Positions 4,720 through 51,497 of a DNA stretch of 64,000 nt are shown here, in pieces. Position 1 is the first letter of the stretch, and every line of letters starts with the position of its first letter. Below the pieces are notes generated by a model, which saw only the letters and a list, made by a program, of their open reading frames with translations, ran no database searches and was not told the DNA's origin. The position numbers and the translations under genes are program-made. The stretch is from Nemertoderma westbladi (taxonomy: Eukaryota > Animalia > Xenacoelomorpha). The DNA lies in assembly GCA_032718475.1 (NCBI GenBank), contig JAUCBJ010000331.1, positions 1-64,000 of the forward strand, written 5' to 3'.

Positions 4720-5036
4720 GTGGTACCTACATTACATATATATGTGGTACCTACATTACATATATATGTGGTACCTACATTACATATATATGTGGTACCT
4801 ACATTACATATATATGTGGTACCTACATTACATATATATGTGGTACCTACATTACATATATATGTGGTACCTACATTACATATATATGTGGTACCTACAT
4901 TACATATATATGTGGTACCTACATTACATATATATGTGGTACCTACATTACATATATATGTGGTACCTACATTACATATATATGTGGTACCTACATTACA
5001 TATATATGTGGTACCTAACCTACATTACATATATAT
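4720..5036. repeat. 24-bp minisatellite (GTGGTACCTACATTACATATATAT), about 13 copies
   Basis: Directly visible near-perfect tandem array. Confidence 0.95.
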
Positions 5037-10443: not shown

Positions 10444-11176
10444 CTAATTAAAAGATCTGCTGATAAGAATCAGCTGTCAGCTGATCTCTCAGACACATGT
10501 CATCCCCATCTCAGTAAATCGGTGCCGTACAGCAGTACAGTGTCATCAGGTCAGACCACAGACAGTAAACAGGTAACAGGGTAAAGCTGTAAAGCTGTGT
10601 AAAGCCTCTCGCTCTCACCTGTCAGCCTGTACGCCAGTACCGGTACTACAGCGCCAGACAGCAGTTCTGGCAGTAGGCTCTGTCACTGTCACACTTTGAC
10701 ACTGCCCGATCCCTACCAGCCTACACCTGTACACCTGTACACTGCACACTCAGACACTGCCGCACTGTCTGACTGTATTGTCCAGTCGCCTTGCAGCCTT
10801 GTAGTACTGTAGTAGTCGTTCTACGTTGCAGGTCTCAGGTCTGCAGGTTGCCCAGTTGCCCTAGCACCTTGCTGCCTTGCTTGAACTATCTGCCTGTCGG
10901 TGTCGGTCTGTGTCAAGCTGTCAAGGTGTACGAAATAACACACAGTTATTTAGTACACCTTGATCTGTGTAGAGAAATTAACATTAAAAATACGAAATAA
11001 GCCAACTGCACTGCAACTGCTGTATCCTACAGTCCTACCCCTCAGTATAATTACCGGTACCAGTAGCGGAGTTCTGATATATCACTGTGTATCAGGAGGC
11101 CCCTGCATGTCAGCGTTCGCTCTGGCACTGGCGTTTCACCAGCATCAGGATATCCCATTGTAAACACAACGAAAAA

Positions 11177-11235
11177 ATGTCGGCAAAAAACATTTACTAT
11201 TCGGATAAATATACGGATGAGGAATATGAATATCG
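11177..11235 (+). CDS. CKS1: Cyclin-dependent kinase regulatory subunit (CKS1/Suc1 family), exon 1
   Basis: Encodes MSAKNIYYSDKYTDEEYEY(R). Ends CG|GTAAGT (phase 2). Confidence 0.95.
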
Positions 11236-11297
11236 GTAAGTTGAATATCGGTAAACTAAAGGCATAAAATTAACCTATTTCCTACTGCTGTACTTGT

Positions 11298-12174: not shown

Positions 12175-12265
12175 CCACGTTATTCTTCCTAAAGATTTAG
12201 CTAAATTGGTTCCAAAATCACATTTAATGACAGAAACGGAATGGCGAAACATCGGTGTGCAACAG
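12175..12265 (+). CDS. CKS1: CKS1/Suc1 family, exon 2
   Basis: TTATTTACAG| acceptor with a TACTAA branch-like site upstream. Encodes (R)[30 protein letters not shown]. Ends CAG|GTGAGT (phase 0). The phases join exons 1 and 3 exactly. Confidence 0.95.
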
Positions 12266-15200
12266 GTGAGTGAACGGAATGGCGAAACATCGGTGTGCAA
12301 CAGGTGAGTGAATGGAATGGCGAAACTTCGGTGTGCAGCAGGTGAGTGAACGGAATGGCGAAACATCGGTGTGCAACAGGTGAGTGAACGGAATGGCGAA
12401 ACATCGGTGTGCAACAGGTGAGTGAACGGAATGGCGAAACATCGGTGTGCAGCAGGTGAGTGAACGGAATGGCGAAACATCGGTGTGCAACAGGTGAGTG
12501 AACGGAATGGCGAAACATTGGTGTGCAACAGGTGAGTGAATGGAATGGCGAAACATCGGTGTGCAGCAGGTGAGTGAACGGAATGGCGAAACATCGGTGT
12601 GCAGCAGGTGAGTGAACGGAATGGCGAAACATCGGTGTGCAGCAGGTGAGTGAACGGAGTGGCGAAACATCGGTGTGCAACAGGTGAGTGAACGGAATGG
12701 CGAAACATTGGTGTGCAACAGGTGAGTGAACGGAATGGCGAAACATCGGTGTGCAACAGGTGAGTGAACGGAATGGCGAAACATTGGTGTGCAACAGGTG
12801 AGTGAACGGAATGGCGAAACATCGGTGTGCAGCAGGTGAGTGAACGGAATGGCGAAACATTGGTGTGCAACAGGTGAGTGAATGGAATGGCGAAACATCG
12901 GTGTGCAGCAGGTGAGTGAACGGAATGGCGAAACATCGGTGTGCAGCAGGTGAGTGAACGGAATGGCGAAACATCGGTGTGCAGCAGGTGAGTGAACGGA
13001 ATGGCGAAACATTGGTGTGCAACAGGTGAGTGAACGGAATGGCGAAACATCGGTGTGCAACAGGTGAGTGAACGGAGTGGCGAAACATCGGTGTGCAGCA
13101 GGTGAGTGAACGGAATGGCGAAACATCGGTGTGCAGCAGGTGAGTGAACGGAATGGCGAAACATTGGTGTGCAACAGGTGAGTGAACGGAATGGCGAAAC
13201 ATCGGTGTGCAGCAGGTGAGTGAACGGAATGGCGAAACATCGGTGTGCAACAGGTGAGTGAACGGAATGGCGAAACATCGGTGTGCAACAGGTGAGTGAA
13301 CGGAATGGCGAAACATCGGTGTGCAACAGGTGAGTGAACGGAATGGCGAAACATTGGTGTGCAACAGGTGAGTGAACGGAGTGGCGAAACATCGGTGTGC
13401 AGCAGGTGAGTGAACGGAATGGCGAAACATCGGTGTGCAGCAGGTGAGTGAACGGAATGGCGAAACATTGGTGTGCAACAGGTGAGTGAACGGAATGGCG
13501 AAACATCGGTGTGCAGCAGGTGAGTGAACGGAATGGCGAAACATCGGTGTGCAACAGGTGAGTGAACGGAATGGCGAAACATCGGTGTGCAACAGGTGAG
13601 TGAACGGAATGGCGAAACATCGGTGTGCAACAGGTGAGTGAACGGAATGGCGAAACATCGGTGTGCAACAGGTGAGTGAACGGAATGGCGAAACATTGGT
13701 GTGCAACAGGTGAGTGAACGGAGTGGCGAAACATCGGTGTGCAGCAGGTGAGTGAACGGAATGGCGAAACATCGGTGTGCAGCAGGTGAGTGAACGGAAT
13801 GGCGAAACATTGGTGTGCAACAGGTGAGTGAACGGAATGGCGAAACATCGGTGTGCAGCAGGTGAGTGAACGGAATGGCGAAACATCGGTGTGCAACAGG
13901 TGAGTGAACGGAATGGCGAAACATCGGTGTGCAACAGGTGAGTGAACGGAATGGCGAAACATCGGTGTGCAACAGGTGAGTGAACGGAATGGCGAAACAT
14001 TGGTGTGCAACAGGTGAGTGAACGGAGTGGCGAAACATCGGTGTGCAGCAGGTGAGTGAACGGAATGGCGAAACATCGGTGTGCAACAGGTGAGTGAACG
14101 GAATGGCGAAACATCGGTGTGCAGCAGGTGAGTGAACGGAGTGGAGAAACATTGGTGTGCAACAGGTGAGTGAACGGAATGGCGAAACATCGGTGTGCAA
14201 CAGGTGAGTGAACGGAATGGCGAAACATCGGTGTGCAACAGGTGAGTGAACGGAATGGCGAAACATTGGTGTGCAACAGGTGAGTGAACGGAGTGGCGAA
14301 ACATCGGTGTGCAGCAGGTGAGTGAACGGAATGGCGAAACATCGGTGTGCAGCAGGTGAGTGAACGGAATGGCGAAACATTGGTGTGCAACAGGTGAGTG
14401 AACGGAATGGCGAAACATCGGTGTGCAACAGGTGAGTGAACGGAATGGCGAAACATCGGTGTGCAACAGGTGAGTGAACGGAATGGCGAAACATCGGTGT
14501 GCAACAGGTGAGTGAACGGAATGGCGAAACATCGGTGTGCAACAGGTGAGTGAACGGAATGGCGAAACATCGGTGTGCAACAGGTGAGTGAACGGAATGG
14601 CGAAACATCGGTGTGCAACAGGTGAGTGAACGGAATGGCGAAACATTGGTGTGCAACAGGTGAGTGAACGGAATGGCGAAACATCGGTGTGCAGCAGGTG
14701 AGTGAACGGAGTGGCGAAACATCGGTGTGCAGCAGGTGAGTGAACGGAATGGCGAAACATCGGTGTGCAGCAGGTGAGTGAACGGAATGGCGAAACATTG
14801 GTGTGCAACAGGTGAGTGAACGGAATGGCGAAACATCGGTGTGCAGCAGGTGAGTGAACGGAATGGCGAAACATCGGTGTGCAGCAGGTGAGTGAACGGA
14901 ATGGCGAAACATTGGTGTGCAACAGGTGAGTGAACGGAATGGCGAAACATCGGTGTGCAGCAGGTGAGTGAACGGAATGGCGAAACATCGGTGTGCAACA
15001 GGTGAGTGAACGGAATGGCGAAACATCGGTGTGCAGCAGGTGAGTGAACGGAATGGCGAAACATCGGTGTGCAACAGGTGAGTGAACGGAATGGCGAAAC
15101 ATCGGTGTGCAGCAGGTGAGTGAACGGAATGGCGAAACATCGGTGTGCAGCAGGTGAGTGAACGGAATGGCGAAACATCGGTGTGCAACAGGTGAGTGAA

Positions 15201-18200
15201 CGGAATGGCGAAACATCGGTGTGCAGCAGGTGAGTGAACGGAATGGCGAAACATCGGTGTGCAGCAGGTGAGTGAACGGAATGGCGAAACATCGGTGTGC
15301 AGCAGGTGAGTGAACGGAATGGCGAAACATCGGTGTGCAGCAGGTGAGTGAACGGAATGGCGAAACATCGGTGTGCAGCAGGTGAGTGAACGGAATGGCG
15401 AAACATTGGTGTGCAACAGGTGAGTGAACGGAATGGCGAAACATCGGTGTGCAGCAGGTGAGTGAACGGAATGGCGAAACATCGGTGTGCAGCAGGTGAG
15501 TGAACGGAGTGGCGAAACATCGGTGTGCAACAGGTGAGTGAACGGAATGGCGAAACATCGGTGTGCAACAGGTGAGTGAACGGAATGGCGAAACATTGGT
15601 GTGCAACAGGTGAGTGAACGGAATGGCGAAACATCGGTGTGCAGCAGGTGAGTGAACGGAATGGCGAAACATCGGTGTGCAGCAGGTGAGTGAACGGAAT
15701 GGCGAAACATTGGTGTGCAACAGGTGAGTGAACGGAATGGCGAAACATCGGTGTGCAGCAGGTGAGTGAACGGAATGGCGAAACATCGGTGTGCAACAGG
15801 TGAGTGAACGGAATGGCGAAACATCGGTGTGCAGCAGGTGAGTGAACGGAATGGCGAAACATCGGTGTGCAACAGGTGAGTGAACGGAATGGCGAAACAT
15901 CGGTGTGCAACAGGTGAGTGAACGGAATGGCGAAACATCGGTGTGCAACAGGTGAGTGAACGGAATGGCGAAACATTGGTGTGCAACAGGTGAGTGAACG
16001 GAGTGGCGAAACATCGGTGTGCAGCAGGTGAGTGAACGGAATGGCGAAACATCGGTGTGCAACAGGTGAGTGAACGGAATGGCGAAACATCGGTGTGCAG
16101 CAGGTGAGTGAACGGAGTGGCGAAACATCGGTGTGCAGCAGGTGAGTGAACGGAATGGCGAAACATCGGTGTGCAGCAGGTGAGTGAACGGAATGGCGAA
16201 ACATTGGTGTGCAACAGGTGAGTGAACGGAATGGCGAAACATCGGTGTGCAGCAGGTGAGTGAACGGAATGGCGAAACATCGGTGTGCAGCAGGTGAGTG
16301 AACGGAATGGCGAAACATCGGTGTGCAACAGGTGAGTGAACGGAATGGCGAAACATCGGTGTGCAGCAGGTGAGTGAACGGAGTGGCGAAACATCGGTGT
16401 GCAACAGGTGAGTGAACGGAGTGGCGAAACATCGGTGTGCAGCAGGTGAGTGAACGGAATGGCGAAACATCGGTGTGCAGCAGGTGAGTGAACGGAATGG
16501 CGAAACATTGGTGTGCAACAGGTGAGTGAACGGAATGGCGAAACATCGGTGTGCAGCAGGTGAGTGAACGGAATGGCGAAACATCGGTGTGCAGCAGGTG
16601 AGTGAACGGAATGGCGAAACATCGGTGTGCAACAGGTGAGTGAACGGAATGGCGAAACATTGGTGTGCAACAGGTGAGTGAACGGAATGGCGAAACATCG
16701 GTGTGCAGCAGGTGAGTGAACGGAATGGCGAAACATTGGTGTGCAACAGGTGAGTGAACGGAATGGCGAAACATCGGTGTGCAACAGGTGAGTGAACGGA
16801 GTGGCGAAACATCGGTGTGCAGCAGGTGAGTGAACGGAATGGCGAAACATCGGTGTGCAGCAGGTGAGTGAACGGAATGGCGAAACATCGGTGTGCAACA
16901 GGTGAGTGAACGGAATGGCGAAACATTGGTGTGCAACAGGTGAGTGAACGGAATGGCGAAACATCGGTGTGCAGCAGGTGAGTGAACGGAATGGCGAAAC
17001 ATTGGTGTGCAACAGGTGAGTGAACGGAATGGCGAAACATCGGTGTGCAGCAGGTGAGTGAACGGAATGGCGAAACATCGGTGTGCAACAGGTGAGTGAA
17101 CGGAGTGGCGAAACATCGGTGTGCAACAGGTGAGTGAACGGAATGGCGAAACATCGGTGTGCAGCAGGTGAGTGAACGGAATGGCGAAACATTGGTGTGC
17201 AACAGGTGAGTGAACGGAATGGCGAAACATCGGTGTGCAGCAGGTGTGTTAACGGAGTGGCGAAACATCGGTGTGCAACAGGTGAGTGAACGGAATGGCG
17301 AAACATCGGTGTGCAACAGGTGAGTGAACGGAGTGGCGAAACATCGGTGTGCAGCAGGTGAGTGAACGGAGTGGCGAAACATCGGTGTGCAGCAGGTGAG
17401 TGAACGGAATGGCGAAACATCGGTGTGCAGCAGGTGAGTGAACGGAATGGCGAAACATCGGTGTGCAGCAGGTGAGTGAACGGAATGGCGAAACATCGGT
17501 GTGCAACAGGTGAGTGAACGGAATGGCGAAACATCGGTGTGCAGCAGGTGAGTGAACGGAATGGCGAAACATCGGTGTGCAACAGGTGAGTGAACGGAAT
17601 GGCGAAACATCGGTGTGCAACAGGTGAGTGAACGGAATGGCGAAACATCGGTGTGCAACAGGTGAGTGAACGGAATGGCGAAACATCGGTGTGCAACAGG
17701 TGAGTGAACGGAATGGCGAAACATCGGTGTGCAACAGGTGAGTGAACGGAATGGCGAAACATCGGTGTGCAGCAGGTGAGTGAACGGAATGGCGAAACAT
17801 TGGTGTGCAACAGGTGAGTGAACGGAATGGCGAAACATCGGTGTGCAGCAGGTGAGTGAACGGAATGGCGAAACATCGGTGTGCAACAGGTGAGTGAACG
17901 GAATGGCGAAACATCGGTGTGCAGCAGGTGAGTGAACGGAATGGCGAAACATCGGTGTGCAACAGGTGAGTGAACGGAATGGCGAAACATCGGTGTGCAA
18001 CAGGTGAGTGAATGGAATGGCGAAACATCGGTGTGCAACAGGTGAGTGAACGGAATGGCGAAACATCGGTGTGCAACAGGTGAGTGAACGGAGTGGCGAA
18101 ACATCGGTGTGCAACAGGTGAGTGAACGGAGTGGCGAAACATCGGTGTGCAACAGGTGAGTGAACGGAGTGGCGAAACATTGGTGTGCAACAGGTGAGTG

Positions 18201-19729
18201 AACGGAGTGGCGAAACATCGGTGTGCAACAGGTGAGTGAACGGAGTGGCGAAACATCGGTGTGCAACAGGTGAGTGAACGGAGTGGCGAAACATCGGTGT
18301 GCAGCAGGTGAGTGAACGGAATGGCGAAACATCGGTGTGCAACAGGTGAGTGAACGGAATGGCGAAACATCGGTGTGCAGCAGGTGAGTGAACGGAATGG
18401 CGAAACATCGGTGTGCAACAGGTGAGTGAACGGAATGGCGAAACATCGGTGTGCAACAGGTGAGTGAACGGAATGGCGAAACATCGGTGTGCAACAGGTG
18501 AGTGAACGGAGTGGCGAAACATTGGTGTGCAACAGGTGAGTGAACGGAGTGGCGAAACATCGGTGTGCAACAGGTGAGTGAACGGAGTGGCGAAACATCG
18601 GTGTGCAACAGGTGAGTGAACGGAGTGGCGAAACATCGGTGTGCAGCAGGTGAGTGAACGGAATGGCGAAACATCGGTGTGCAACAGGTGAGTGAACGGA
18701 ATGGCGAAACATCGGTGTGCAACAGGTGAGTGAACGGAGTGGCGAAACATTGGTGTGCAACAGGTGAGTGAACGGAGTGGCGAAACATCGGTGTGCAACA
18801 GGTGAGTGAACGGAGTGGCGAAACATCGGTGTGCAACAGGTGAGTGAACGGAGTGGCGAAACATCGGTGTGCAGCAGGTGAGTGAACGGAATGGCGAAAC
18901 ATCGGTGTGCAACAGGTGAGTGAACGGAATGGCGAAACATCGGTGTGCAACAGGTGAGTGAACGGAGTGGCGAAACATTGGTGTGCAACAGGTGAGTGAA
19001 CGGAGTGGCGAAACATCGGTGTGCAACAGGTGAGTGAACGGAGTGGCGAAACATCGGTGTGCAACAGGTGAGTGAACGGAGTGGCGAAACATCGGTGTGC
19101 AGCAGGTGAGTGAACGGAATGGCGAAACTTCGGTGTGCAGCAGGTGAGTGAACGGAATGGCGAAACATCGGTGTGCAACAGGTGAGTGAACGGAATGGCG
19201 AAACATCGGTGTGCAACAGGTGAGTGAACGGAATGGCGAAACATCGGTGTGCAACAGGTGAGTGAACGGAGTGGCGAAACATTGGTGTGCAACAGGTGAG
19301 TGAACGGAGTGGCGAAACATCGGTGTGCAACAGGTGAGTGAACGGAGTGGCGAAACATCGGTGTGCAGCAGGTGAGTGAACGGAATGGCGAAACATTGGT
19401 GTGCAACAGGTGAGTGAACGGAATGGCGAAACATCGGTGTGCAACAGGTGAGTGAACGGAGTGGCGAAACATTGGTGTGCAACAGGTGAGTGAACGGAGT
19501 GGCGAAACATCGGTGTGCAACAGGTGAGTGAACGGAGTGGCGAAACATCGGTGTGCAACAGGTGAGTGAACGGAGTGGCGAAACATCGGTGTGCAGCAGG
19601 TGAGTGAACGGAATGGCGAAACATTGGTGTGCAACAGGTGAGTGAACGGAATGGCGAAACATCGGTGTGCAGCAGGTGAGTGAACGGAGTGGCGAAACAT
19701 TGGTGTGCAACAGGTGAGTGAACGGAATG
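12235..19729 (+). repeat. 38-bp satellite made of the last 31 nt of CKS exon 2 plus the first 7 nt of intron 2; 197 full units and a partial unit
   Basis: Unit AACGGA(A/G)TGGCGAAACAT(C/T)GGTGTGCA(A/G)CAG|GTGAGTG. The distance 19721-12235 = 7486 = 197 x 38, so there is no net indel. Confidence 0.97.
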
Positions 19730-19731
19730 AG

Positions 19732-22700
19732 TGATCCTACTTACCTACTTATGATCCTACTCAGCTACTTATGATCCTACTTACCTACTTATGATCCTAC
19801 TTACCTACTTATGATCCTACTTACCTACTTATGATCCTACTTACCTACTTATGATCCTACTTACCTACTTATGATCCTACTTACCTACTTATGATCCTAC
19901 TTACCTACTTATGATCCTACTTACCTACTTATGATCCTACTTACCTACTTATGATCCTACTCAGCTACTTATGATCCTACTTACCTACTTATGATCCTAC
20001 TTACCTACTTATGATCCTACTCAGCTACTTATGATCCTACTTACCTACTTATGATCCTACTCAGCTACTTATGATCCTACTTACCTACTTATGATCCTAC
20101 TCATCTACTTATGATCCTACTTACCTACTTATGATCCTACTTACCTACTTATGATCCTACTCTGCTACTTATGATCCTACTTACCTACTTATGATCCTAC
20201 TTACCTACTTATGATCCTACTTACCTACTTATGATCCTACTTACCTACTTATGATCCTAATTACCTACTTATGATCCTACTTACCTACTTATGATCCTAC
20301 TTACCTACTTATGATCCTACTCAGCTACTTATGATCCTACTTACCTACTTATGATCCTACTTACCTACTTATGATCCTACTCAGCTACTTATGATCCTAC
20401 TTACCTACTTATGATCCTACTTACCTACTTATGATCCTACTTACCTACTTATGATCCTACTTACCTACTTATGATCCTACTTACCTACTTATGATCCTAC
20501 TTACCTACTTATGATCCTACTCTGCTACTTATGATCCTACTTACCTACTTATGATCCTACTTACCTACTTATGATCCTACTTACCTACTTATGATCCTAC
20601 TTACATACTTATGATCCTACTTACCTACTTATGATCCTACTCAGCTACTTATGATCCTACTTACCTACTTATGATCCTACCCAGCTACTTATGATCCTAC
20701 TCAGCTACTTATGATCCTACATTCCTACTTATGATCCTACTCAGCTACTTATGATCCTACTTACCTACTTATGATCCTACTCAGCTACTTATGATCCTAC
20801 TTACCTACTTATGATCCTACGTACCTACTTATGATCCTACTCAGCTACTTATGATCCTACTTACCTACTTATGATCCTACTCAGCTACTTATGATCCTAC
20901 TTACCTACTTATGATCCTACTTACCTACTTATGATCCTACTCATCTACTTATGATCCTACTTACCTACTTATGATCCTACTTATGATCCTACTTACCTAC
21001 TTATGATCCTACTTACCTACTTATGATCCTACTTACCTACTTATGATCCTACTTACCTACTTATGATCCTACTTACCTACTTATGATCCTACTTACCTAC
21101 TTATGATCCTACTTACCTACTTATGATCCTACTTACCTACTTATGATCCTACTTACCTACTTATGATCATACTTACCTACTTATGATCCTACTTACCTAC
21201 TTATGATCCTACTTACCTACTTATGATCCTACTTACCTACTTATGATCCTACTTACCTACTTATGATCCTACTTACCTACTTATGATCCTACTTACCTAC
21301 TTATGATCCTACTCATCTACTTATGATCCTAATTACCTACTTATGATCCTACTCATCTACATATGATCCTACTTACCTACATATGATCCTACTTACCTAC
21401 TTATGATCCTACTTACCTACTTATGATCCTACTTACCTACTTATGATCCTACTTACCTACTTATGATCCTACTTACCTACTTATGATCCTACTTACCTAC
21501 TTATGATCCTACTTACCTACTTATGATCCTACTTACCTACTTATGATCCTACTTACCTACTTATGATCCTACTTACCTACTTATGATCCTACTTACCTAC
21601 TTATGATCCTACTTACCTACTTATGATCCTACTTAGCTACTTATGATCCTACTTACCTACTTATGATCCTACTTACCTACTTATGATCCTACTTACCTAC
21701 TTATGATCCTACTTACCTACTTATGATCCTACTTACCTACTTATGATCCTACTTACCTACTTATGATCCTACTTACCTACTTATGATCCTACTTACCTAC
21801 TTATGATCCTACTTACCTACTTATAATCCTACTTACCTACTTATGATCCTACTTACCTACTTATGATCCTACTTACCTACTTATGATCCCACTTACCTAC
21901 TTATGATCCTACTTACCTACTTATGATCCTACTTACCTACTTATGATCCTACTCAGCTACTTATGATCCTACTTACCTACTTATGATCCTACTTACCTAC
22001 TTATGATCCTACACAGCTACTTATGATCCTACTTACCTACTTATGATCCTACTTACCTACTTATGATCCTACTTACCTACTTATGATCCTACTTACCTAC
22101 TTATGATCCTACTTACCTACTTATGATCCTACTTACCTACTTATGATCCTACTTACCTACTTATGATCCTACTTACCTACTTATGATCCTACTTACCTAC
22201 TTATGATCCTACTTACCTACTTATGATCCTACTTACCTACTTATGATCCTACTCACCTACTTATGATCCTACTTACCTACTTATGATCCTACTTACCTAC
22301 TTATGATCCTACTTACCTACTTATGATCCTACTTACCTACTTATGATCCTACTTACCTACTTATGATCCTACTTACCTACTTATGATCCTACTCACCTAC
22401 TTATGATCCTACTTACCTACTTATGATCCTACTTACCTACTTATGATCCCACTTACCTACTTATGATCCTACTTACCTACTTATGATCCTACTTACCTAC
22501 TTATGATCCTACTTACCTACTTATGATCCTACTCAGCTACTTATGATCCTACTCAGCTACTTATGATCCTACTTACCTACTTATGATCCTACTTACCTAC
22601 TTATGATCCTACTTACCTACTTATGATCCTACTTACCTACTTATGATCCTACTTACCTACTTATGATCCTACTTACCTACTTATGATCCTACTTACCTAC

Positions 22701-25700
22701 TTATGATCCTACTCAGCTACTTATGATCCTACTCAGCTACTTATGATCCTACTTACCTACTTATGATCCTACTTACCTACTTATGATCCTACTTACCTAC
22801 TTATGATCCTACTTACCTACTTATGATCCTACTTACCTACTTATGATCCTACTTACCTACTTATGATCCTACTTACCTACTTATGATCCTACTCAGCTAC
22901 TTATGATCCTACTTACCGACTTATGATCCTACTCAGCTACTTATGATCCTACTTACCTACTTATGATCCTACTTACCTACTTATGATCCTACTTACCTAC
23001 TTATGATCCTACTTACCTACTTATGATCCTACTTACCTACTTATGATCCTACTTACCTACTTATGATCCTACTTACCTACTTATGATCCTACTTACCTAC
23101 TTATGATCCTACTTACCTACTTATGATCCTACTTACCTACTTATGATCCTACTTACCTACTTATGATCCTACTTACCTACTTATGATCCTACACAGCTAC
23201 TTATGATCCTACTTACCTACTTATGATCCTACTTACCTACTTATGATCCTACTTACCTACTTATGATCCTACTTACCTACTTATGATCCTACTTACCTAC
23301 TTATGATCCTACTTACCTACTTATGATCCTACTTACCTACTTATGATCCTACTTACCTACTTATGATCCTACTTACCTACTTATGATCCTACTTACCTAC
23401 TTATGATCCTACTTACCTACTTATGATCCTACTCAGCTACTTATGATCCTACTTACCTACTTATGATCCTACTTACCTACTTATGATCCTACTTACCTAC
23501 TTATGATCCTACTTACCTACTTATGATCCTACTTACCTACTTATGATCCTACTTACCTACTTATGATCCTACTTACCTACTTATGATCCTACTTACCTAC
23601 TTATGATCCTACTCAGCTACTTATGATCCTACTTACCGACTTATGATCCTACTCAGCTACTTATGATCCTACTTACCTACTTATGATCCTACTTACCTAC
23701 TTATGATCCTACTTACCTACTTATGATCCTACTTACCTACTTATGATCCTACTTACATACTTATGATCCTACTTACCTACTTATGATCCTACTTACCTAC
23801 TTATGATCCTACTCAGCTACTTATGATCCTACTTACCTACTTATGATCCTACTCAGCTACTTATGATCCTACTTACCTACTTATGATCCTACATACCTAC
23901 TTATGATCCTACTCAGCTACTTATGATCCTACTTACCTACTTATGATCCTACTTACCTACTTATGATCCTACTCAGCTACTTATGATCCTACTTACCTAC
24001 TTATGATCCTACTTACCTACTTATGATCCTACTTACCTACTTATGATCCTACTTACATACTTATGATCCTACTTACCTACTTATGATCCTACTTACCTAC
24101 TTATGATCCTACTTACCTACTTATGATCCTACTTACCTACTTATGATCCTACTCATCTACTTATGATCCTACTTACCTACTTATGATCCTACTTAGGATC
24201 CTACTTACCTACTTATGATCCTACTTACCTACTTATGATCCTACTTACCTACTTATGATCCTACTTACCTACTTATGATCCTACTTACCTACTTATGATC
24301 CTACTTACCTACTTATGATCCTACTTACCTACTTATGATCCTACTTACCTACTTATGATCCTACTTACCTACTTATGATCCTACTTACCTACTTATGATC
24401 CTACTTACCTACTTATGATCCTACTTACCTACTTATGATCCTACTTACCTACTTATGATCCTACTTACCTACTTATGATCCTACTCAGCTACTTATGATC
24501 CTACTTACCTACTTATGATCCTACTCAGCTACTTATGATCCTACTTACCTACTTATGATCCTACATACCTACTTATGATCCTACTCAGCTACTTATGATC
24601 CTACTTACCTACTTATGATCCTACTTACCTACTTATGATCCTACTCAGCTACTTATGATCCTACTTACCTACTTATGATCCTACTTACCTACTTATGATC
24701 CTACTTACCTACTTATGATCCTACTTACATACTTATGATCCTACTTACCTACTTATGATCCTACTTACCTACTTATGATCCTACTTACCTACTTATGATC
24801 CTACTTACCTACTTATGATCCTACTCATCTACTTATGATCCTACTTACCTACTTATGATCCTATTTAGGATCCTACTTACCTACTTATGATCCTACTTAC
24901 CTACTTATGATCCTACTTACCTACTTATGATCCTACTTACCTACTTATGATCCTACTTACCTACTTATGATCCTACTTACCTACTTATGATCCTACTTAC
25001 CTACTTATGATCCTACTTACCTACTTATGATCCTACTTACCTACTTATGATCCTACTTACCTACTTATGATCCTACTTACCTACTTATGATCCTACTTAC
25101 CTACTTATGATCCTACTCATCTACTTATGATCCTACTTACCTACTTATGATCCTACTCATCTACTTATGATCCTACTTACCTACTTATGATCCTACTCAG
25201 CTACTTATGATCCTACTTACCTACTTATGATCCTACTTACCTACTTATGATCCTACTTACCTACTTATGATCCTACTTACCTACTTATGATCCTACTTAC
25301 CTACTTATGATCCTACTTACCTACTTATGATCCTACTTACCTACTTATGATCCTACTCAGCTACTTATGATCCTACTTACCCACTTATGATCCTACTTAC
25401 CTACTTATGATCCTACTTACCTACTTATGATCCTACTTACCTACTTATGATCCTACTTACCTACTTATGATCCTACTCAGCTACTTATGATCCTACTTAC
25501 CTACTTATGATTCTACTTACCTACTTATGATCCTACTCAGCTACTTATGATCCTACTTACCTACTTATGATCCTACTTACCTACTTATGATCCTACTTAT
25601 CTACTTATGATCCTACTTACCTACTTATGATCCTACTTACCTACTTATGATCCTACTTACCTACTTATGATCCTACTTACCTACTTATGATCCTACTTAC

Positions 25701-28700
25701 CTACTTATGATCCTACTTACCTACTTATGATCCTACTTACCTACTTATGATCCTACTCAGCTACTTATGATCCTACTTACCTACTTATGATCCTACTTAC
25801 CTACTTATGATCCTACTTACCTACTTATGATCCTACTTACCTACTTATGATCCTACTTACCTACTTATGATCCTACTCATCTACTTATGATCCTACTTAC
25901 CTACTTATGATCCTACTCATCTACTTATGATCCTACTTACCTACTTATGATCCTACTTACCTACTTATAATCCTACTTACCTACTTATGATCCTACTCAT
26001 CTACTTATGATCCTACTTACCTACTTATGATCCTACTCATCTACTTATGATCCTACTTACCTACTTATGATCCTACTTACCTACTTATGATCCTACTCAG
26101 CTACTTATGATCCTACTTACCTACTTATGATCCTACTTACCTACTTATGATCCTACTTACCTACTTATGATCCTACTTACCTACTTATGATCCTACTTAC
26201 CTACTTATGATCCTACTTACCTACTTATGATCCTACTCATCTACTTATGATCCTACTTACCTACTTATGATCCTACTCATCTACTTATGATCCTACTTAC
26301 CTACTTACCTACGGTCACCCTTCACAAAACTCACCTGTCTAAGGAAGAGTTCCGCGACGCTCTGTGTCTGCGCTACGGCTGGCAACCGAAGTCGCTCCCT
26401 TCTCGTTGTGTCTGTGGGGAACGATTTTCCCCTTCACACGTCCTGTCGTGCCCCACCGGGGGTTATCCCTCGATAAGGCACAACGAGATACGCGATTTCG
26501 TTGCCGACGCGCTAACTGAAGTAGCCCACAACGTCGCAGTAGAGCCAGCACTCCAGCCTCTTAACAGGTGAGGAGTTCACCCACAGATCCACCTCCACAG
26601 AAGATCAGGCGAGGTTGGACGTCTCTGTCAGCGGGTTCTGGGGTGGCCGGTTCGAGAAGACTTACTTCGACGTCTCGGTCTACAACCCTCTAGCGGCCAC
26701 CAACGCAGCCATGACCACCGAGGGCGCTTATTCCCACCACGAGGCGCGGAAACGCCTGAAGTACGAGGAGCGCATCCGAGAGGTCGAACTGTCGTCGTTT
26801 GTGCCTCTGATACTTTCAGCCTTTGGTGGTACCGCGCCAGCGATGCAACAGTTCGTTAAGCGTTTATCGCTTAAACTCTCGGATCGTCGCGACCTCAGCT
26901 ACTCTGAGTGTATCTGCTGGACGCGGAGGAAGATAAGCTTCGCGCTTCTCCGCTCCAGTTTGATGTGTCTCCGTGGAGCGAGATCCGCCACCAAACGCCC
27001 TGTTTATCATCAGGTGTCCGCAGACTCGATTCGCCTGACTAACGCTGATACCAACACCGGCTAGACTGACTGTCAGTGGTAGTCATAGGCCTCTAAACAG
27101 GCCCTTCTTTCTTTATTTATTATTTTTTTTTATTATCGGTATCGGTGTAGGAATTATTCATTTTGTTCTATTAATAAAGTGCCTGTAAAAGAGTTATGCT
27201 GATATTGTGCAAATTATATAATAAACTAGTAACTTAAAAAAAAAAAAAAACTTACCTACTTATGATCCTACTCAGCTACTTATGATCCTACTTACCTACT
27301 TATGATCCTACTTACCTACTTATGATCCTACTTACCTACTTATGATCCTACTTACCTACTTATGATCCTACTTACCTACTTATGATCCTAATTACCTACT
27401 TATGATCCTACTTACCTACTTATGATCCTACTTACCTACTTATGATCCTACTCACCTACTTATGATCCTACTTACCTACTTATGATCCTACTTACCTACT
27501 TATGATCCTACTCAGCTACTTATGATCCTACTTACCTACTTATGATCCTACTTACCTACTTATGATCCTACTTACCTACTTATGATCCTACTTACCTACT
27601 TATGATCCTACTTACCTACTTATGATCCTACTTACCTACTTATGATCCTACTTACCTACTTATGATCCTACTTACCTACTTATGATCCTACTTACCTACT
27701 TATGATCCTACTTACCTACTTATGATCCTACTTACCTACTTATGATCCTACTTACCTACTTATGATCCTACTCATCTACTTATGATCCTACTTACCTACT
27801 TATGATCCTACTCATCTACTTATGATCCTACTTACCTACTTATGATCCTACTCAGCTACTTATGATCCTACTTACCTACTTATGATCCTACTTACCTACT
27901 TATGATATCCTACTTACCTACTTATGATCCTACTTACCTACTTATGATCCTACTTACCTACTTATGATCCTACTTACCTACTTATGATCCTACTTACCTA
28001 CTTATGATCCTACTTACCTACTTATGATCCTACTCACCTACTTATGATCCTACTTACCTACTTATGATCCTACTTACCTACTTATGATCCTACTTACCTA
28101 CTTATGATCCTACTCACCTACTTATGATCCTACTTACCTACTTATGATCCTACTCGGCTACTTATGATCCTACTTACCTACTTATGATCCTACTCATCTA
28201 CTTATGATCCTACTTACCTACTTATGATCCTACTTACCTACTTATAATCCTACTTACCTACTTATGATCCTACTCATCTACTTATGATCCTACTTACCTA
28301 CTTATGATCCTACTCATCTACTTATGATCCTACTTACCTACTTATGATCCTACTTACCTACTTATGATCCTACTCAGCTACTTATGATCCTACTTACCTA
28401 CTTATGATCCTACTTACCTACTTATGATCCTACTCAGCTACTTATGATCCTACTTACCTACTTATGATCCTACTTACCTACTTATGATCCTACTTACCTA
28501 CTTATGATCCTACTTACCTACTTATGATCCTACTTACCTACTTATGATCCTACTCAGCTACTTATGATCCTACTTACCTACTTATGATCCTACATTCCTA
28601 CTTACCTACTTATGATCCTACTTGCCTACTTATGATCCTACTCAGCTACTTATGATCCTACTTACCTACTTATGATCCTACTTACCTACTTATGATCCTA

Positions 28701-31700
28701 CTTACCTACTTATGATCCTACTTACCTACTTATGATCCTACTTACCTACTTATGATCCTACTTACCTACTTATGATCCTACTTACCTACTTATGATCCTA
28801 CTTACCTACTTATGATCCTACTTACCTACTTATGATTCTACTTACCTACTTATGATCCTACTTATGATCCTACTTACCTACTTATGATCCTACTTACCTA
28901 CTTATGATCCTACTTACCTACTTATGATCCTACTTACCTACTTATGATCCTACTTACCTACTTATGATCCTACTTACCTACTTATGATCCTACTTACCTA
29001 CTTATGATCCTACTTACCTACTTATAATTCTACTTACCTACTTATGATCCTACTTATGATCCTACTTACCTACTTATGATCCTACTTACCTACTTATGAT
29101 CCTACTTACCTACTTATGACCCTACTTACCTACTTATGATCCTAATTACCTACTTATGATCCTACTCATCTACTTATGATCCTACTTACCTACTTATGAT
29201 CCTACTTACCTACTTATGATCCTACTTACCTACTTATGATCCTACTTACCTACTTATGATCCTACTTACCTACTTATGATCCTACTTATGATCCTACTTA
29301 CCTACTTATGATCCTACTTACCTACTTATGATCCTACTTACCTACTTATGATCCTACTTACCTACTTATGATCCTACTTACCTACTTATGATCCTACTTT
29401 CCTACTTATGATCCTACTTACCTACTTATGATCCTACTCAGCTACTTATGATCCTACTTACCTACTTATGATCCTACTTACCTACTTATGATCCTACTAC
29501 AGCTACTTATGATCCTACTTACCTACTTATGATCCTACTTACCTACTTATGATCCTACTTACCTACTTATGATCCTACTTACCTACTTATGATCCTACTT
29601 ACCTACTTATGATCCTACTTACCTACTTATGATCCTACTTACCTACTTATGATCCTACTTACCTACTTATGATCCTACTTACCTACTTATGATCCTACTT
29701 ACCTACTTATGATCCTACTCAGCTACTTATGATCCTACTTACCTACTTATGATCCTACTCACCTACTTATGATCCTACTTACCTACTTATGATCCTACTT
29801 ACCTACTTATGATCCTACTTACCTACTTATGATCCTACTTACCTACTTATGATCCTACTCAGCTACTTATGATCCTACTTACCTACTTATGATCCTACTT
29901 ACCTACTTATGATCCTACTTACCTACTTATGATCCTACTTACCTACTTATGATCCTACTTACCTACTTATGATCCTACTTACCTACTTATGATCCTACTT
30001 ACCTACTTATGATCCTACTCAGCTACTTATGATCCTACTTACCTACTTATGATCCTACTTACCTACTTATGATCCTACTTACCTACTTATGATCCTACTT
30101 ACCTACTTATGATCCTACTTACCTACTTATGATCCTACGTACCTACTTATGATCATAATCAGCTACTTATGATCCTACTTACCTACTTATGATCCTACTT
30201 ACCTACTTATGATCCTACTCAGCTACTTATGATCCTACTTACCTACTTATGATCCTACTTACCTACTTACCTACTTATGATCCTACTTACCTACTTATGA
30301 TCCTACTTATGATCCTACTTACCTACTTATGATCCTACTTACCTACTTATGATCCTACTTACCTACTTATGATCCTACTTATGATCCTACTTACCTACTT
30401 ATGATCCTACTCAGCTACTTATGATCCTACTTACCTACTTATGATCCTACTTACCTACTTATGATCCTACTTACCTACTTATGATCCTACTTACCTACTT
30501 ATGATCCTACTCACCTACTTATGATCCTACTTACCTACTTATGATCCTACTCATCTACTTATGATCCTACTTACCTACTTATGATCCTACTTACCTACTT
30601 ATGATCCTACTTACCTACTTATGATCCTACTTACCTACTTATGATCCTACTTACCTACTTATGATCCTACTTACCTACTTATGATCCTACTTACCTACTT
30701 ATGATCCTACTTACCTACTTATGATCCTACTTACCTACTTATGATCCTACTCACCTACTTATGATCCTACTTACCTACTTATGATCCTACTCAGCTACTT
30801 ATGATCCTACTTACCTACTTATGATCCTACTTACCTACTTATGATCCTACTTACCTACTTATGATCCTACTTACCTACTTATGATCCTACTTACCTACTT
30901 ATGATCCTACTTACCTACTTATGATCCTACTTACCTACTTATGATCCTACTTACCTACTTATGATCCTACTTACCTACTTATGATCCTACTTACCTACTT
31001 ATGATCCTACTTACCTACTTATGATCCTACTTACCTACTTATGATCCTACTCACCTACTTATGATCCTACTTACCTACTTATGATCCTACTCCTACTTAT
31101 GATCCTACTTACCTACTTATGATCCTACTCATCTACTTATGATCCTACTTACCTACTTATGATCCTACTTACCTACTTATGATCCTACTTACCTACTTAT
31201 GATCCTACTCACCTACTTATGATCCTACTTACCTACTTATGATCCTACTCATCTACTTATGATCCTACTTACCTACTTATGATCCTACTTACCTACTTAT
31301 GATCCTACTCACCTACTTATGATCCTACTTACCTACTTATGATCCTACTTACCTACTTATGATCCTACTCAGCTACTTATGATCCTACTTACCTACTTAT
31401 GATCCTACTTACCTACTTATGATCCTACTTACCTACTTATGATCCTACTTACCTACTTATGATCCTACTTACCTACTTATGATCCTACTCAGCTACTTAT
31501 GATCCTACTTACCTACTTATGATCCTACATTCCTACTTACCTACTTATGATCCTACTTACCTACTTATGATCCTACTCAGCTACTTATGATCCTACTTAC
31601 CTACTTATGATCCTACTTACCTACTTATGATCCTACTTACCTACTTATGATCCTACTTACCTACTTATGATCCTACTTACCTACTTATGATCCTACTTAC

Positions 31701-34700
31701 CTACTTATGATCCTACTTACCTACTTATGATCCTACTTACCTACTTATGATCCTACTTACCTACTTATGATTCTACTTACCTACTTATGATCCTACTTAT
31801 GATCCTACTTACCTACTTATGATCCTACTTACCTACTTATGATCCTACTTACCTACTTATGACCCTACTTACCTACTTATGATCCTACTTACCTACTTAT
31901 GATCCTACTTACCTACTTATGATCCTACTTACCTACTTATGATCCTACTTACCTACTTATAATTCTACTTACCTACTTATGATCCTACTTATGATCCTAC
32001 TTACCTACTTATGATCCTACTTACCTACTTATGATCCTACTTACCTACTTATGACCCTACTTACCTACTTATGATCCTACTTACCTACTTATGATCCTAC
32101 TCATCTACTTATGATCCTACTTACCTACTTATGATCCTACTTACCTACTTATGATCCTACTTACCTACTTATGATCCTACTTACCTCCTTATGATCCTAC
32201 TTACCTACTTATGATCCTACTTATGATCCTACTTACCTACTTATGATCCTACTTACCTACTTATGATCCTACTTACCTACTTATGATCCTACTTACCTAC
32301 TTATGATCCTACTTACCTACTTATGATCCTACTTTCCTACTTATGATCCTACTTACCTACTTATGATCCTACTCAGCTACTTATGATCCTACTTACCTAC
32401 TTATGATCCTACTTACCTACTTATGATCCTACACAGCTACTTATGATCCTACTTACCTACTTATGATCCTACTTACCTACTTATGATCCTACTTACCTAC
32501 TTATGATCCTACTTACCTACTTATGATCCTACTTACCTACTTATGATCCTACTTACCTACTTATGATCCTACTTACCTACTTATGATCCTACTTACCTAC
32601 TTATGATCCTACTTACCTACTTATGATCCTACTTACCTACTTATGATCCTACTCAGCTACTTATGATCCTACTTACCTACTTATGATCCTACTCAGCTAC
32701 TTATGATCCTACTTACCTACTTATGATCCTACTTACCTACTTATGATCCTACTTACCTACTTATGATCCTACTTACCTACTTATGATCCTACTCAGCTAC
32801 TTATGATCCTACTTACCTACTTATGATCCTACTTACCTACTTATGATCCTACTTACCTACTTATGATCCTACTTACCTACTTATGATCCTACTTACCTAC
32901 TTATGATCCTACTTACCTACTTATGATCCTACTTACCTACTTATGATCCTACTCAGCTACTTATGATCCTACTTACCTACTTATGATCCTACTTACCTAC
33001 TTATGATCCTACTTACCTACTTATGATCCTACTTACCTACTTATGATCCTACTTACCTACTTATGATCCTACGTACCTACTTATGATCATAATCAGCTAC
33101 TTATGATCCTACTTACCTACTTATGATCCTACTTACCTACTTATGATCCTACTCAGCTACTTATGATCCTACTTACCTACTTATGATCCTACTTACCTAC
33201 TTACCTACTTATGATCCTACTTACCTACTTATGATCCTACTTATGATCCTACTTACCTACTTATGATCCTACTTACCTACTTATGATCCTACTTACCTAC
33301 TTATGATCCTACTTATGATCCTACTTACCTACTTATGATCCTACTCAGCTACTTATGATCCTACTTACCTACTTATGATCCTACTTACCTACTTATGATC
33401 CTACTTACCTACTTATGATCCTACTTACCTACTTATGATCCTACTCATCTACTTATGATCCTACTTACCTACTTATGATCCTACTCATCTACTTATGATC
33501 CTACTTACCTACTTATGATCCTACTTACCTACTTATAATCCTACTTACCTACTTATGATCCTACTCATCTACTTATGATCCTACTTACCTACTTATGATC
33601 CTACTCATCTACTTATGATCCTACTTACCTACTTATGATCCTACTTACCTACTTATGATCCTACTCAGCTACTTATGATCCTACTTACCTACTTATGATC
33701 CTACTTACCTACTTATGATCCTACTTACCTACTTATGATCCTACTTACCTACTTATGATCCTACTTACCTACTTATGATCCTACTTACCTACTTATGATC
33801 CTACTTACCTACTTATGATCCTACTTATGATCCTACTTACCTACTTATGATCCTACTTACCTACTTATGATCCTACTTACCTACTTATGATCCTACTTAC
33901 CTACTTATGATCCTACTTACCTACTTATGATCCTACTTACCTACTTATGATCCTACTTACCTACTTATGATCCTACTCATCTACTTATGATCCTACTTAC
34001 CTACTTATGATCCTACTCATCTACTTATGATCCTACTTACCTACTTATGATCCTACTCAGCTACTTATGATCCTACTTACCTACTTATGATCCTACTTAC
34101 CTACTTATGATCCTACTTACCTACTTATGATCCTACTTACCTACTTATGATCTTACTTACCTACTTATGATCCTACTTACCTACTTATGATCCTACTTAC
34201 CTACTTATGATCCTACTTACCTACTTATGATCCTACTCAGCTACTTATGATCCTACTTACCTACTTATGATCCTACTTACCTACTTATGATCCTACTTAC
34301 CTACTTATGATCCTACTTACCTACTTATGATCCTACTTACCTACTTATGATCCTACTCAGCTACTTATGATCCTACTTACCTACTTATGATCCTACTTAC
34401 CTACTTATGATCCTACTTACCTACTTATGATCCTACTTACCTACTTATGATCCTACTTACCTACTTATGATCCTACTTACCTACTTATGATCCTACTTAC
34501 CTACTTATGATCCTACTCAGCTACTTATGATCCTACTTACCTACTTATGATCCTACTTACCTACTTATGATCCTACTTACCTACTTATGATCCTACTTAC
34601 CTACTTATGATCCTACTTACCTACTTATGATCCTACTTACCTACTTATGATCCTACTTACCTACTTATGATCCTACTTACCTACTTATGATCCTACTTAT

Positions 34701-34860
34701 CTACTTATGATCCTACTTACCTACTTATGATCCTACTTACCTACTTATGATCCTACTTACCTACTTATAATCCTACTTACCTACTTATGATCCTACTTAC
34801 CTACTTATAATCCTACTTACCTACTTATGATCCTACTTACCTACTTATGATCCTACTTAC
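19732..34860 (+). repeat. 20-bp satellite (TGATCCTACTTACCTACTTA), roughly 700 units, within CKS intron 2
   Basis: Directly visible. The unit is TGAT plus two copies of CCTACTTA. Variants are TCAGCT, TCATCT or TCACCT in place of TTACCT, with occasional 12-bp and 28-bp units. Confidence 0.97.
26308..27250 (+). mobile_element. 5'-truncated non-LTR retrotransposon with restriction-like endonuclease (CRE-clade-like), inserted in the 20-bp satellite
   Basis: EFRDALCLRYG, a CCHC knuckle (CVCG...HVLSC), RHNEIRD, RLDV..SGFW...YFDV, E..KR.KY and FVPLILSAFGG. One frameshift near 26565 and a stop at 27064. AATAAA at about 27173, a 15-nt poly(A) ending 27250, and CTTACCTAC on both flanks. Confidence 0.88.
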
Positions 34861-35043
34861 TTGGTTAGGAAACACCGTCAATGTAACCTGCTCCTTCCCC
34901 TTAATGGTTTAATTTCAATAAATTTATATTTTTTCAAATAATTGCAATTCCGAAATCTAGAAATCGTTATGACGTCATTATAATTGATAGCTAGATTTCT
35001 CGAAGGGCCGCCGTTTAGTAATTTAGTTTTTTTTTTATTCCAG

Positions 35044-35166
35044 AGCCAAGGCTGGATCCATTACATGATGCATGAACCGGAACCCCATATCCTGTTGTTC
35101 CGCAGAGCAGCTCCGGGTCAAACAGCTGCTCAATCAAAGCAATCAGTCGTGCAGAAAGTCCATTAA
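35044..35166 (+). CDS. CKS1: CKS1/Suc1 family, exon 3
   Basis: Strong acceptor (T-run then ATTCCAG|). Encodes [21 protein letters not shown]...VH*. The spliced CDS is 59+91+123 = 273 nt, giving 90 aa. Confidence 0.95.
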
Positions 35167-36066
35167 AGCCAACAAATAACCCGGTCGCAATAATTGTATA
35201 TTGTGGACAGCCCACCATATATTATACTCGATGTTCGTTCGCTTTGTGATTAATAACTAAATACATTATAAATAATACGTTAATATTTACAATAAACTTT
35301 CCTAGTTTACTTTACTGTGTTTGCTTATTGTTTCCGTTATACTTTACTATGCATCTTCGACTTACACAAACATGTCGTTATAGTTGTGTATTAAATAATA
35401 CACGTGTAAATATATTTAGCAAAGTTATTGTTTGTGAGTTATATTTTTATTAAATCTTATTAAATATTGAATTACATTCTGGTCGTGATACTCAACTATA
35501 TATTTCTTTTCCCCAACTGTATAAACCATATAACTTAATGTGTCTTTTGCTACTAAACTTTTACATTTTAATAAGACATTTGTATGCATCTTCATTTGAT
35601 AATTTCCTATTTACGCACGTCAGTGTAAAATAACACTTTGAGTGAAACACCGAAAAGTTGCCAAAAAGCTCCATAAATGTTAGACAATGTATAATTCCAC
35701 TTCTACTAATCGAAATTTCATAAAATAAAGTTCATACGATGCCTTAAATTCTAAACAATATTGGACACCACATCTGTGCAGCATATTATAAAAGTATAGT
35801 TTCGTAATTAACTCTTGAATGCAAAAAATATAGGAAAAATGCAATTTTCACATCAATGTAGTGATCATTTCATTGATTTAAATGTTATTCTTTATATATT
35901 AATATTTCAAAAGGTATGGATGCTGATACAGTATAACAATAGCGACAAAATAAGAAAGCTAAGGGGGGAGGGTGGGTGTGTAAGTTAGTCTGTTTCATTG
36001 GGGAGGGGGGGTATGTAAGTCCTTTCCGTCGGGTGGGGGGGGGGGGGGGGGGGGGGTGGTGGAGTA

Positions 36067-43400: not shown

Positions 43401-43502
43401 CTGGTCTGTAACTGCTTTGGTCTGTAACTACCCTGGTCTGTAACTGCTCTGGTCTGTAACTGCTCTGGTCTGTAACTGCTTTGGTCTGTAACTGCTCTGG
43501 TC
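37497..43502. repeat. 16-bp satellite (CTGTAACTGCTCTGGT), about 370 units with higher-order blocks
   Basis: Directly visible. Variants include GCCC, ACCC, GCTT, GATC and GCAC. Blocks with the same variant order recur at 41.3-43.4 kb. Confidence 0.97.
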
Positions 43503-43581
43503 GGGTGGTCCAAGCTGAGTACAATACCTACGAGGAACTGTTTTACGACATCGCGTATCTAGCCATCGACGAGGCGTTACA

Positions 43582-46137: not shown

Positions 46138-46156
46138 TCTTATAAATCGCCGCTAC

Positions 46157-50970: not shown

Positions 50971-51497
50971 CACGACAAAGATTAACCAAAGAAAATGATT
51001 GAATATAGTTGGAAACGATGAAAAGGATCAGACAACTCTACTATAAACCTGAATGATGATGCGTATGCTGATGAAAATGAAATGATGCGCACCCTGGTGC
51101 TGCGCTTATAACAATGATGATAGCCGGGGGGCTATAAACCCAATGATGATGTGGAAATAAATAAATGTGAAATAAATGGTGGAAATAAATATGTTGAAAT
51201 ATGTGGAAATAAATGAAATGAGATGAAATAATAATGAAATGAAAAAAGACAAAAAAAAGGTATAAAAAGGTCTAAGAAAAGAATTGGAAAAAAGAAAGGA
51301 CAAAAAAGTCATAAAAAACTGGTTGGATATTAATGTATAGTTATAGTAACTGTAAATGCTGAATGTATTAGCAATAAGATGATAGATGCCTATATAGCAA
51401 TGTTATTAATAAACTGAATTAAATAAAAAACTGAATCATTCTGCTATCGCTATAGTTTCAGACTTTCTGGACTTATAATTAACTGATCTAATTTGTA

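Follow-up and report, generated by a model that had tools for sequence, protein, structure and literature searches.

The 64,000-nt window analysed here (positions 1 to 64,000, forward strand, of contig JAUCBJ010000331.1, Nemertoderma westbladi, GenBank assembly GCA_032718475.1) contains a CKS-family gene in which the end of the second coding exon, together with its 5' splice site (donor), forms the first of 197 tandem 38-bp units. This array is followed in the same intron by a second array of 20-bp units. The sequence was compared with the assembled contigs of sequencing runs: X1 is a DNA run that may be the window's source, and X2 is a DNA run from another sample and study. We treated X3 and X4 as RNA on account of how they behave: their contigs run from exon 1 straight into exon 2 with a GT..AG intron removed, and X3 has a poly(A) end; no run is on record as RNA (X3 is listed as "DNA?" and X4 as "?"). 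The features of the gene, in window coordinates, are given below.

10491–10580, plus strand: 5' untranslated region (UTR) exon sequence of CKS, placed by loose ends of X3 contigs, with GT and AG in place and with probable exact limits.
11177–11235, plus strand: coding exon 1 of CKS, 59 nt, with the ATG at 11177, from the sequence.
12175–12265, plus strand: coding exon 2 of CKS, 91 nt, ending in the 31 nt that the repeat unit shares with the exon.
12235–19729, plus strand: array 1, 197 units of 38 bp, each with a copy of the donor, from Tandem Repeats Finder (TRF) and the sequence.
12263–12272, plus strand: donor 1, CAG/GT with GT at 12266, the donor of the spliced contigs found.
19721–19733, plus strand: partial last unit of array 1, which reads as a unit with a probable 25-nt internal deletion and abuts array 2.
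19732–34860, plus strand: array 2, about 710 units of 20 bp net of an insertion, directly after array 1, from TRF and the sequence.
26313–27250, plus strand: truncated, frameshifted retroelement in array 2, presumably of non-LTR (long terminal repeat) type, 938 nt, sense to CKS.
35044–35498, plus strand: last CKS exon, coding at 35044–35166, with the stop at 35164–35166 and poly(A) after 35498.

Joined together, the coding exons form an intact 273-nt frame of 90 amino acids (aa) with a single terminal stop, and the two introns between them, of 939 and 22,778 nt, are both GT..AG. Exons 2 and 3 match the Pfam CKS family (PF01111) with 44.3 and 39.6 bits, respectively, at a cut-off of 27, and the exon 2 protein is identical to Ciona CKS at 22 of 30 positions; judged by the intact frame and the Pfam match, the gene is a member of the CKS family. 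The database matches of exon 3 are generic CKS proteins, mostly animal where named. Each of the two DNA runs has one long contig on exon 3, and a second near-identical gene is not evident in them. The first-pass annotation, made from the sequence alone, had called the amplified segment the end of CKS1 exon 2; the segment ends the second coding exon of a CKS-family gene, for which CKS1 is a putative label, and further 5' UTR exon sequence lies near 10491–10580. The 5' UTR intron has two likely donors (after 10513 and after 10580, with GT at 10514 and 10581) and likely acceptors at 11033 and 11046, and X3 also has an unspliced contig over it (10491–11046). At 11223–11252, a 15-bp duplication with two mismatches crosses the exon 1/intron 1 donor, giving a weaker second donor 15 nt downstream; the RNA-type contigs splice at the first of the two.

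TRF reports array 1 at 12235–19729 with a period of 38, 197.2 copies, and 96% matches. We counted 197 CAGGT motifs, and all 196 spacings between them are exactly 38 nt. The donor is CAG/GTGAGT in 196 of the 197 units, the sole exception being CAG/GTGTGT with its GT at 17244. Both the earlier description of the array as 197 tandem copies of the exon 2 end with its donor and the statement that all units but one near 17244 keep the consensus donor are confirmed by these counts. Unit 1 (12235–12272) takes its first 31 nt from the end of coding exon 2 and its other 7 nt from the start of intron 2, and it straddles the genuine exon/intron boundary 12265/12266, which is the one used in the RNA-type contigs. 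The likeness of the units is far beyond chance: 63 of the 197 have exactly the sequence of unit 1, and two units differ on average at 1.23 of 38 positions.

The summed depth of the 38-bp unit is 33,021 in X1 and 10,490 in X2 vs 18–34 on the flank, although summed contig depth, by the tool's own warning, is not a copy number; with the same reservation, X2 has a lower relative summed unit depth than X1. Both DNA runs contain the unit many times over, one of them coming from a sample not flagged as a possible source of the window, which disposes of the suggestion that the array might be a mere assembly artefact. An exact 30-nt scan of metagenome contigs gave 0 matches.

Exon 3 is present in four of the eight listed runs of the same organism. 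In both X3 and X4, contigs join exon 1 to exon 2 across the 939-nt intron; a 535-nt contig of X4 spans exons 1, 2, and 3, another X3 contig has a loose poly(A) end at 35498, and X4 also has a contig on the last exon. Three contigs run from exon 2 into exon 3 (two of X3, with depths of 6000 and 1122, and one of X4). All three start in letters unique to exon 2 and leave at 12265, and donor 1 is therefore the donor used. The CKS gene is expressed and is spliced from donor 1 to exon 3, which disposes of the suggestion that the locus might be untranscribed. Neither X3 nor X4 has a contig on the units beyond 12265, and the X3 depth of 1166.7 in the bin 12260–12304 is fully accounted for by exon letters. 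A form using a later donor would appear as a loop on a high-depth path, and contigs drop rare variants, so that missing cover is no proof of absence; elsewhere on the CKS transcript, X3 retains rare side forms (depth 11 beside 7000).

With donor 2, the frame would shift and translation would end in the last exon, after 70 aa; with donors 3–7, the others computed, it would stop in unit 2, after 63 aa. The HxxEPH/LLFRR part of the protein is lost throughout, in agreement with the first-pass annotation, although the stop in unit 2 that it gave for every later donor does not apply to the donor 2 product. The stop precedes the junction by 34 nt with donor 3 and by at least 72 nt with donor 4 and those after it. 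Nonsense-mediated decay (NMD) follows a 50–55-nt rule for the distance from the stop to the last junction, by which donors 2 and 3 would yield no NMD targets and only donor 4 onward would. The problem of picking one of about 196 equivalent donors is a real one, and every later donor computed would spoil the protein, but donor 1 is the one used in the spliced forms found, as in human F7.

The variation among the units bears signs of turnover. Three common variants, present in 77, 44, and 38 of the 197 units, give rise to the six main unit types, and all three are synonymous in the exon 2 frame (chance of 0.027 for exonic transitions and 0.009 for all exonic changes, both post hoc). The rarer variants are two non-synonymous changes (in 4 and 2 units), one synonymous change (in 1 unit), and two intronic changes in one unit. 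There are 2 distinct changes in the 7 intron nt vs 6 in the 31 exon nt, and these counts give no sign of selective keeping of the donors.

At 12262, the commonest variant site, the exon-specific X3 contigs (depths of 6000 and 1122) have two letters; the X2 exon contig ends at 12261, and the X1 exon contig runs to 12264. This points to a DNA polymorphism that segregates in the exon itself, with RNA editing being possible for X3 alone. We infer that unit 1 exchanges sequence with the array, or else that several exon alleles contributed to the array when it was built. At two of the three pairs of sites that vary, the letters are found in all four combinations, and the frequency of one variant increases towards the 3' end. 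The small mean difference between units, the recurring higher-order blocks, and the reshuffled variants are signs of concerted evolution. The region is repeat-prone: 44% of the window is tandem arrays, and the 13.8 kb of non-array DNA contains nine short adjacent duplications, one of them across the intron-1 donor, vs 0–1 per 7.1 kb of shuffled sequence.

Array 2, which the first-pass annotation does not mention, is complementary to the donor. In 559 of its units there is a 9-mer complementary to the consensus donor, which we take to match the U1 5' end, and 11 units contain the exact complement of the CKS donor; the 8-mer core is found in 0.33% of shuffled 20-mer units. The 20-mer itself is made up of an 8-mer in duplicate and 4 further nt. 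Its minus-strand sequence reads as a consensus donor in every unit, and on that strand the array starts with a GTAAGT; no antisense exon is evident at the right end of the array, where the flank is a dispersed repeat. A fragment of this repeat (34861–34914) abuts the array and has a summed depth in the thousands with many different flanks in X1 and X2; similar ends were seen by eye near 9189, 10151, and 37330. In X1 and X2 contigs, the right end of array 2 is joined to the exon-3 side by 30 letters only. The depth of perfect 20-mer words in X1 is 680–1500 times that of single-copy sequence vs about 437 copies in the window, and other 20-mer loci or a longer allele of array 2 may exist. In X3, the 20-bp repeat is present at a depth of 330, and array 1 words are absent, which could reflect another transcribed locus, shorter alleles, or pruning by the assembler.

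The retroelement in array 2 has two AATAAA signals, a poly(A) tail, and a 9–10-nt target-site duplication on the donor-complementary motif. We presume it to be of non-LTR type from its Cys/His-RHN and DV motifs, and its look-alikes in the Atlas are unnamed eukaryotic proteins. It is a possible early polyadenylation site within CKS intron 2.

The CKS array belongs to a known kind of intronic minisatellite that spans a donor, and it is extreme in both size and donor strength; the comparisons that follow draw on parts of the cited papers. The closest precedent is intron 7 of human F7, with a 37-bp variable number tandem repeat (VNTR) of 5–9 units, of which only the first donor is used (PMC1557585, Borensztajn et al. 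2006). As in CKS, the first F7 unit lies over the exon/intron boundary, the intronic donors are identical, and the most upstream one is used. The F7 unit is composed of 4 nt of exon and 33 nt of intron, whereas the CKS unit, of nearly the same size (38 bp) but in 197 copies, has 31 nt of exon and 7 nt of intron. The F7 donors are middling (CV 74), whereas those of CKS are perfect CAG/GTGAGT, the first site being equally perfect. In minigenes, one to twelve F7 units made no difference, but F7 pseudo-sites changed to CAG/gtgagt took about 70–90% of splicing from the weaker first site (PMC1557585).

Minisatellites in human CBS intron 13, interferon-inducible 6-16, LAMIN B2, and PDGF likewise place donor-bearing units behind the authentic donor, with 10–26 units, far fewer than in CKS (via the introduction of PMC1557585). 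In amphioxus, the "mirage" minisatellites of the Adh3 and globin genes lie over exon–intron boundaries with units of 10–160 bp (PMC3087553). Like the CKS array, they are found in an invertebrate and show concerted evolution, and no harm to normal splicing is reported for them in the part of that paper covered; the globin mirage has 3–6 units, and its length instability is demonstrated, whereas for CKS it is hinted at. Human ABCA7 intron 18 has a 25-bp VNTR at the donor with over 200 copies in some people (PMC13747324), comparable in size to the CKS array, but it adjoins the donor and does not span it. The part of a catalogue of splicing-linked repeats that was covered (PMC10078293) held no closer case.

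We consider it most probable, at roughly three in four, that array 1 is a minisatellite that spans a donor and drifts, like those of F7/CBS and the mirages of amphioxus, and that the gene tolerates it, with no role for it as a control device. Such an array would have begun when a segment across the exon 2/intron 2 boundary was duplicated once, and slippage and unequal exchange would then have amplified it, the region being repeat-prone. Unit 1 would trade sequence with other units or exon alleles, and the common variants would be silent in the exon frame for that reason. Donor 1 would prevail because it is made first and defines the exon with the upstream acceptor: it would close the 91-nt exon against the intron-1 acceptor, and its commitment would come minutes ahead of the transcription of the intron-2 acceptor, which lies 22.8 kb away. 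Like the F7 pseudo-sites, the other 196 donors would be able to function but would go unused. Intron gain by tandem AG/GT duplication (the Rogers model) was considered and rejected, as exon 3 starts with AGC and has its own T-rich acceptor; intron 2 likely predates array 1.

Several points weigh against the array being a tolerated minisatellite. The early commitment of donor 1 is a presumption carried over from splicing in general. The donors are perfect consensus sites, the kind that in F7 minigenes compete well against a weaker first site, and the mammalian precedent guarantees no silence. The RNA and DNA runs come from different samples, and the alleles of the RNA animals may carry shorter arrays. 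Only assembled contigs stand behind the donor-use result, and minor forms are not measurable from them. Of the six distinct exonic variants, two change the amino acid (in 4 and 2 units, respectively), and G is only the probable second letter at 12262. Finally, drift alone does not predict a 20-bp array complementary to the adjacent donor.

An improbable alternative is that the array works as a copy-number rheostat, in which some transcripts use later donors and are lost and array length tunes the CKS dose. All later donors computed give truncated products, and those from donor 4 onward fit the NMD rule, but the products of donors 2 and 3 should escape it. The CKS gene likely has alternative donors in its 5' UTR, and extra donors are in use elsewhere, one or two of them in human 6-16 and CBS (cited in PMC1557585). 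In ABCA7, VNTR length is linked to read-through and intronic donor use, and the VNTR is also linked to disease (PMC13747324). No form with an extra donor is found among the CKS contigs, however, as all those joining exons 2 and 3 leave at donor 1. The indifference of F7 minigenes to unit number (PMC1557585) and the absence of any sign of selection on the donors also speak against tuning by length. Nothing found supports the idea, put forward in the first-pass annotation, that the array tunes expression through NMD.

Quite improbable, in our estimate, is a compensating pair of arrays. Here, the 20-mer would have folded back on what was then the only donor, the 38-bp duplication would have freed the donor, and the arrays would have grown as decoys and masks. 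Because the end of array 1 reads as a unit with a 25-nt deletion running into array 2, the ancestral intron likely began with the donor and then the 20-mer at once. The modelled single-unit ancestor has a 9-bp hairpin with a 4-nt loop that covers the donor, with a predicted donor opening cost of 10.4 kcal/mol vs 2.6 for donor 1, a median of 2.6 for the internal donors, and 8.1 for donor 197; 10.4 is reached by 3.2% of 1000 shuffled 20-mers. The 9-mer in 559 units, the rarity of the 8-mer in shuffles, and the exact donor complement in 11 units are consistent with such a pair.

These tests, however, are post hoc. The duplex between the arrays is no better than that of shuffles (38% of 1000 are as good; for the donor alone, 6.6% of 2000) and, at −11.9 vs −13.5, is weaker than that with the U1 11-mer. 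The modelled ancestor fold as a whole is matched by 26% of shuffles, and the real exon 2/intron 2 junction fold is likewise unremarkable (z = −0.68). As a doubled 8-mer plus 4 nt, the 20-mer may be a fold-back copy or a genome-wide satellite, and a fold-back copying error would account for the complementarity without function. Array 2 is also transcribed 7.5 kb after donor 1. We hold it just as doubtful that about 700 anti-donor masks help to silence 196 decoys, in an RNA-level arms race of two satellites within an essential gene. No donor-complementary array is described for F7 in the account consulted, and literature searches returned nothing of the kind for an intronic repeat array.

It is very unlikely that each CAG/GT serves as both acceptor and donor, with internal splices shortening the array stepwise to donor 1. 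YAG/GT is the layout of recursive splice sites, and a YAG stands directly before the GT in every unit, but only 6 of the 17 positions before the unit CAG are pyrimidines vs 14 of 17 at the intron-2 acceptor (9 of 17 at the intron-1 acceptor). As recursive splice sites, the units were rejected for lack of this tract.

We give similarly little weight to the possibility that the array exists but that its length in the assembly is inflated or misjoined. Contigs built on 31 letters are unable to bridge exon 2 into array 1 or array 1 into array 2, and the position and exact length of array 1 therefore rest on the assembly. The six unit types, however, form an ordered, non-random mix with recurring blocks across the 197 units, which would be unlike the output of a collapsed or padded assembly. 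By rough arithmetic, the summed depth requires at least about 66–84 units in X1, where 197 are allowed, and 16–21 in X2, with wide bounds (66–1309 and 16–320, respectively).

Least likely of all is a U1 sink acting in trans, or a U1 runway guarding the intron from early polyadenylation at the retroelement: 196 predicted-accessible consensus donors (median opening cost of 2.6 kcal/mol) and two AATAAA within a sense insertion would suit it, but a few nascent transcripts with 197 sites each presumably bind a negligible share of the U1 pool, the last donor copy is 7 kb short of the insertion, no test favours the runway, and nothing found supports the titration of U1 proposed earlier.

Further features lie outside the CKS gene. 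A perfect 24-bp array at 4720–5017 (12.4 units, 100% matches) is likely very recent, and a 16-bp array of 371 units (37497–43502) is followed directly by a BEL/Pao LTR retrotransposon (43519–50272), which has two long open frames; a second, broken Pao element lies at about 55830–60100. At 1265–1798, there is an intronless HMGB-like gene with two HMG boxes, the best matches of which are only 37–40% identical. Two further open frames, of 874 aa (51492–54116) and 306 aa (62081–63001), have no Pfam match at E 0.01.

Taken together, these results make the CKS locus an extreme natural test of 5' splice-site choice, with 196 perfect, equal donors spread across the 7.5 kb that follow the working one, in a core cell-cycle gene whose normal mRNA is still produced. 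The rule that the most upstream donor wins, seen in F7 minigenes with at most 12 middling sites, is thereby stretched to about 200 perfect sites, and the unit variants provide barcodes for which donor was used. The pattern of silent variants suggests that coding exons can receive sequence from an intronic satellite. If array 2, with its complement of the donor, were functional, it would represent a new way for repeats to police splicing.

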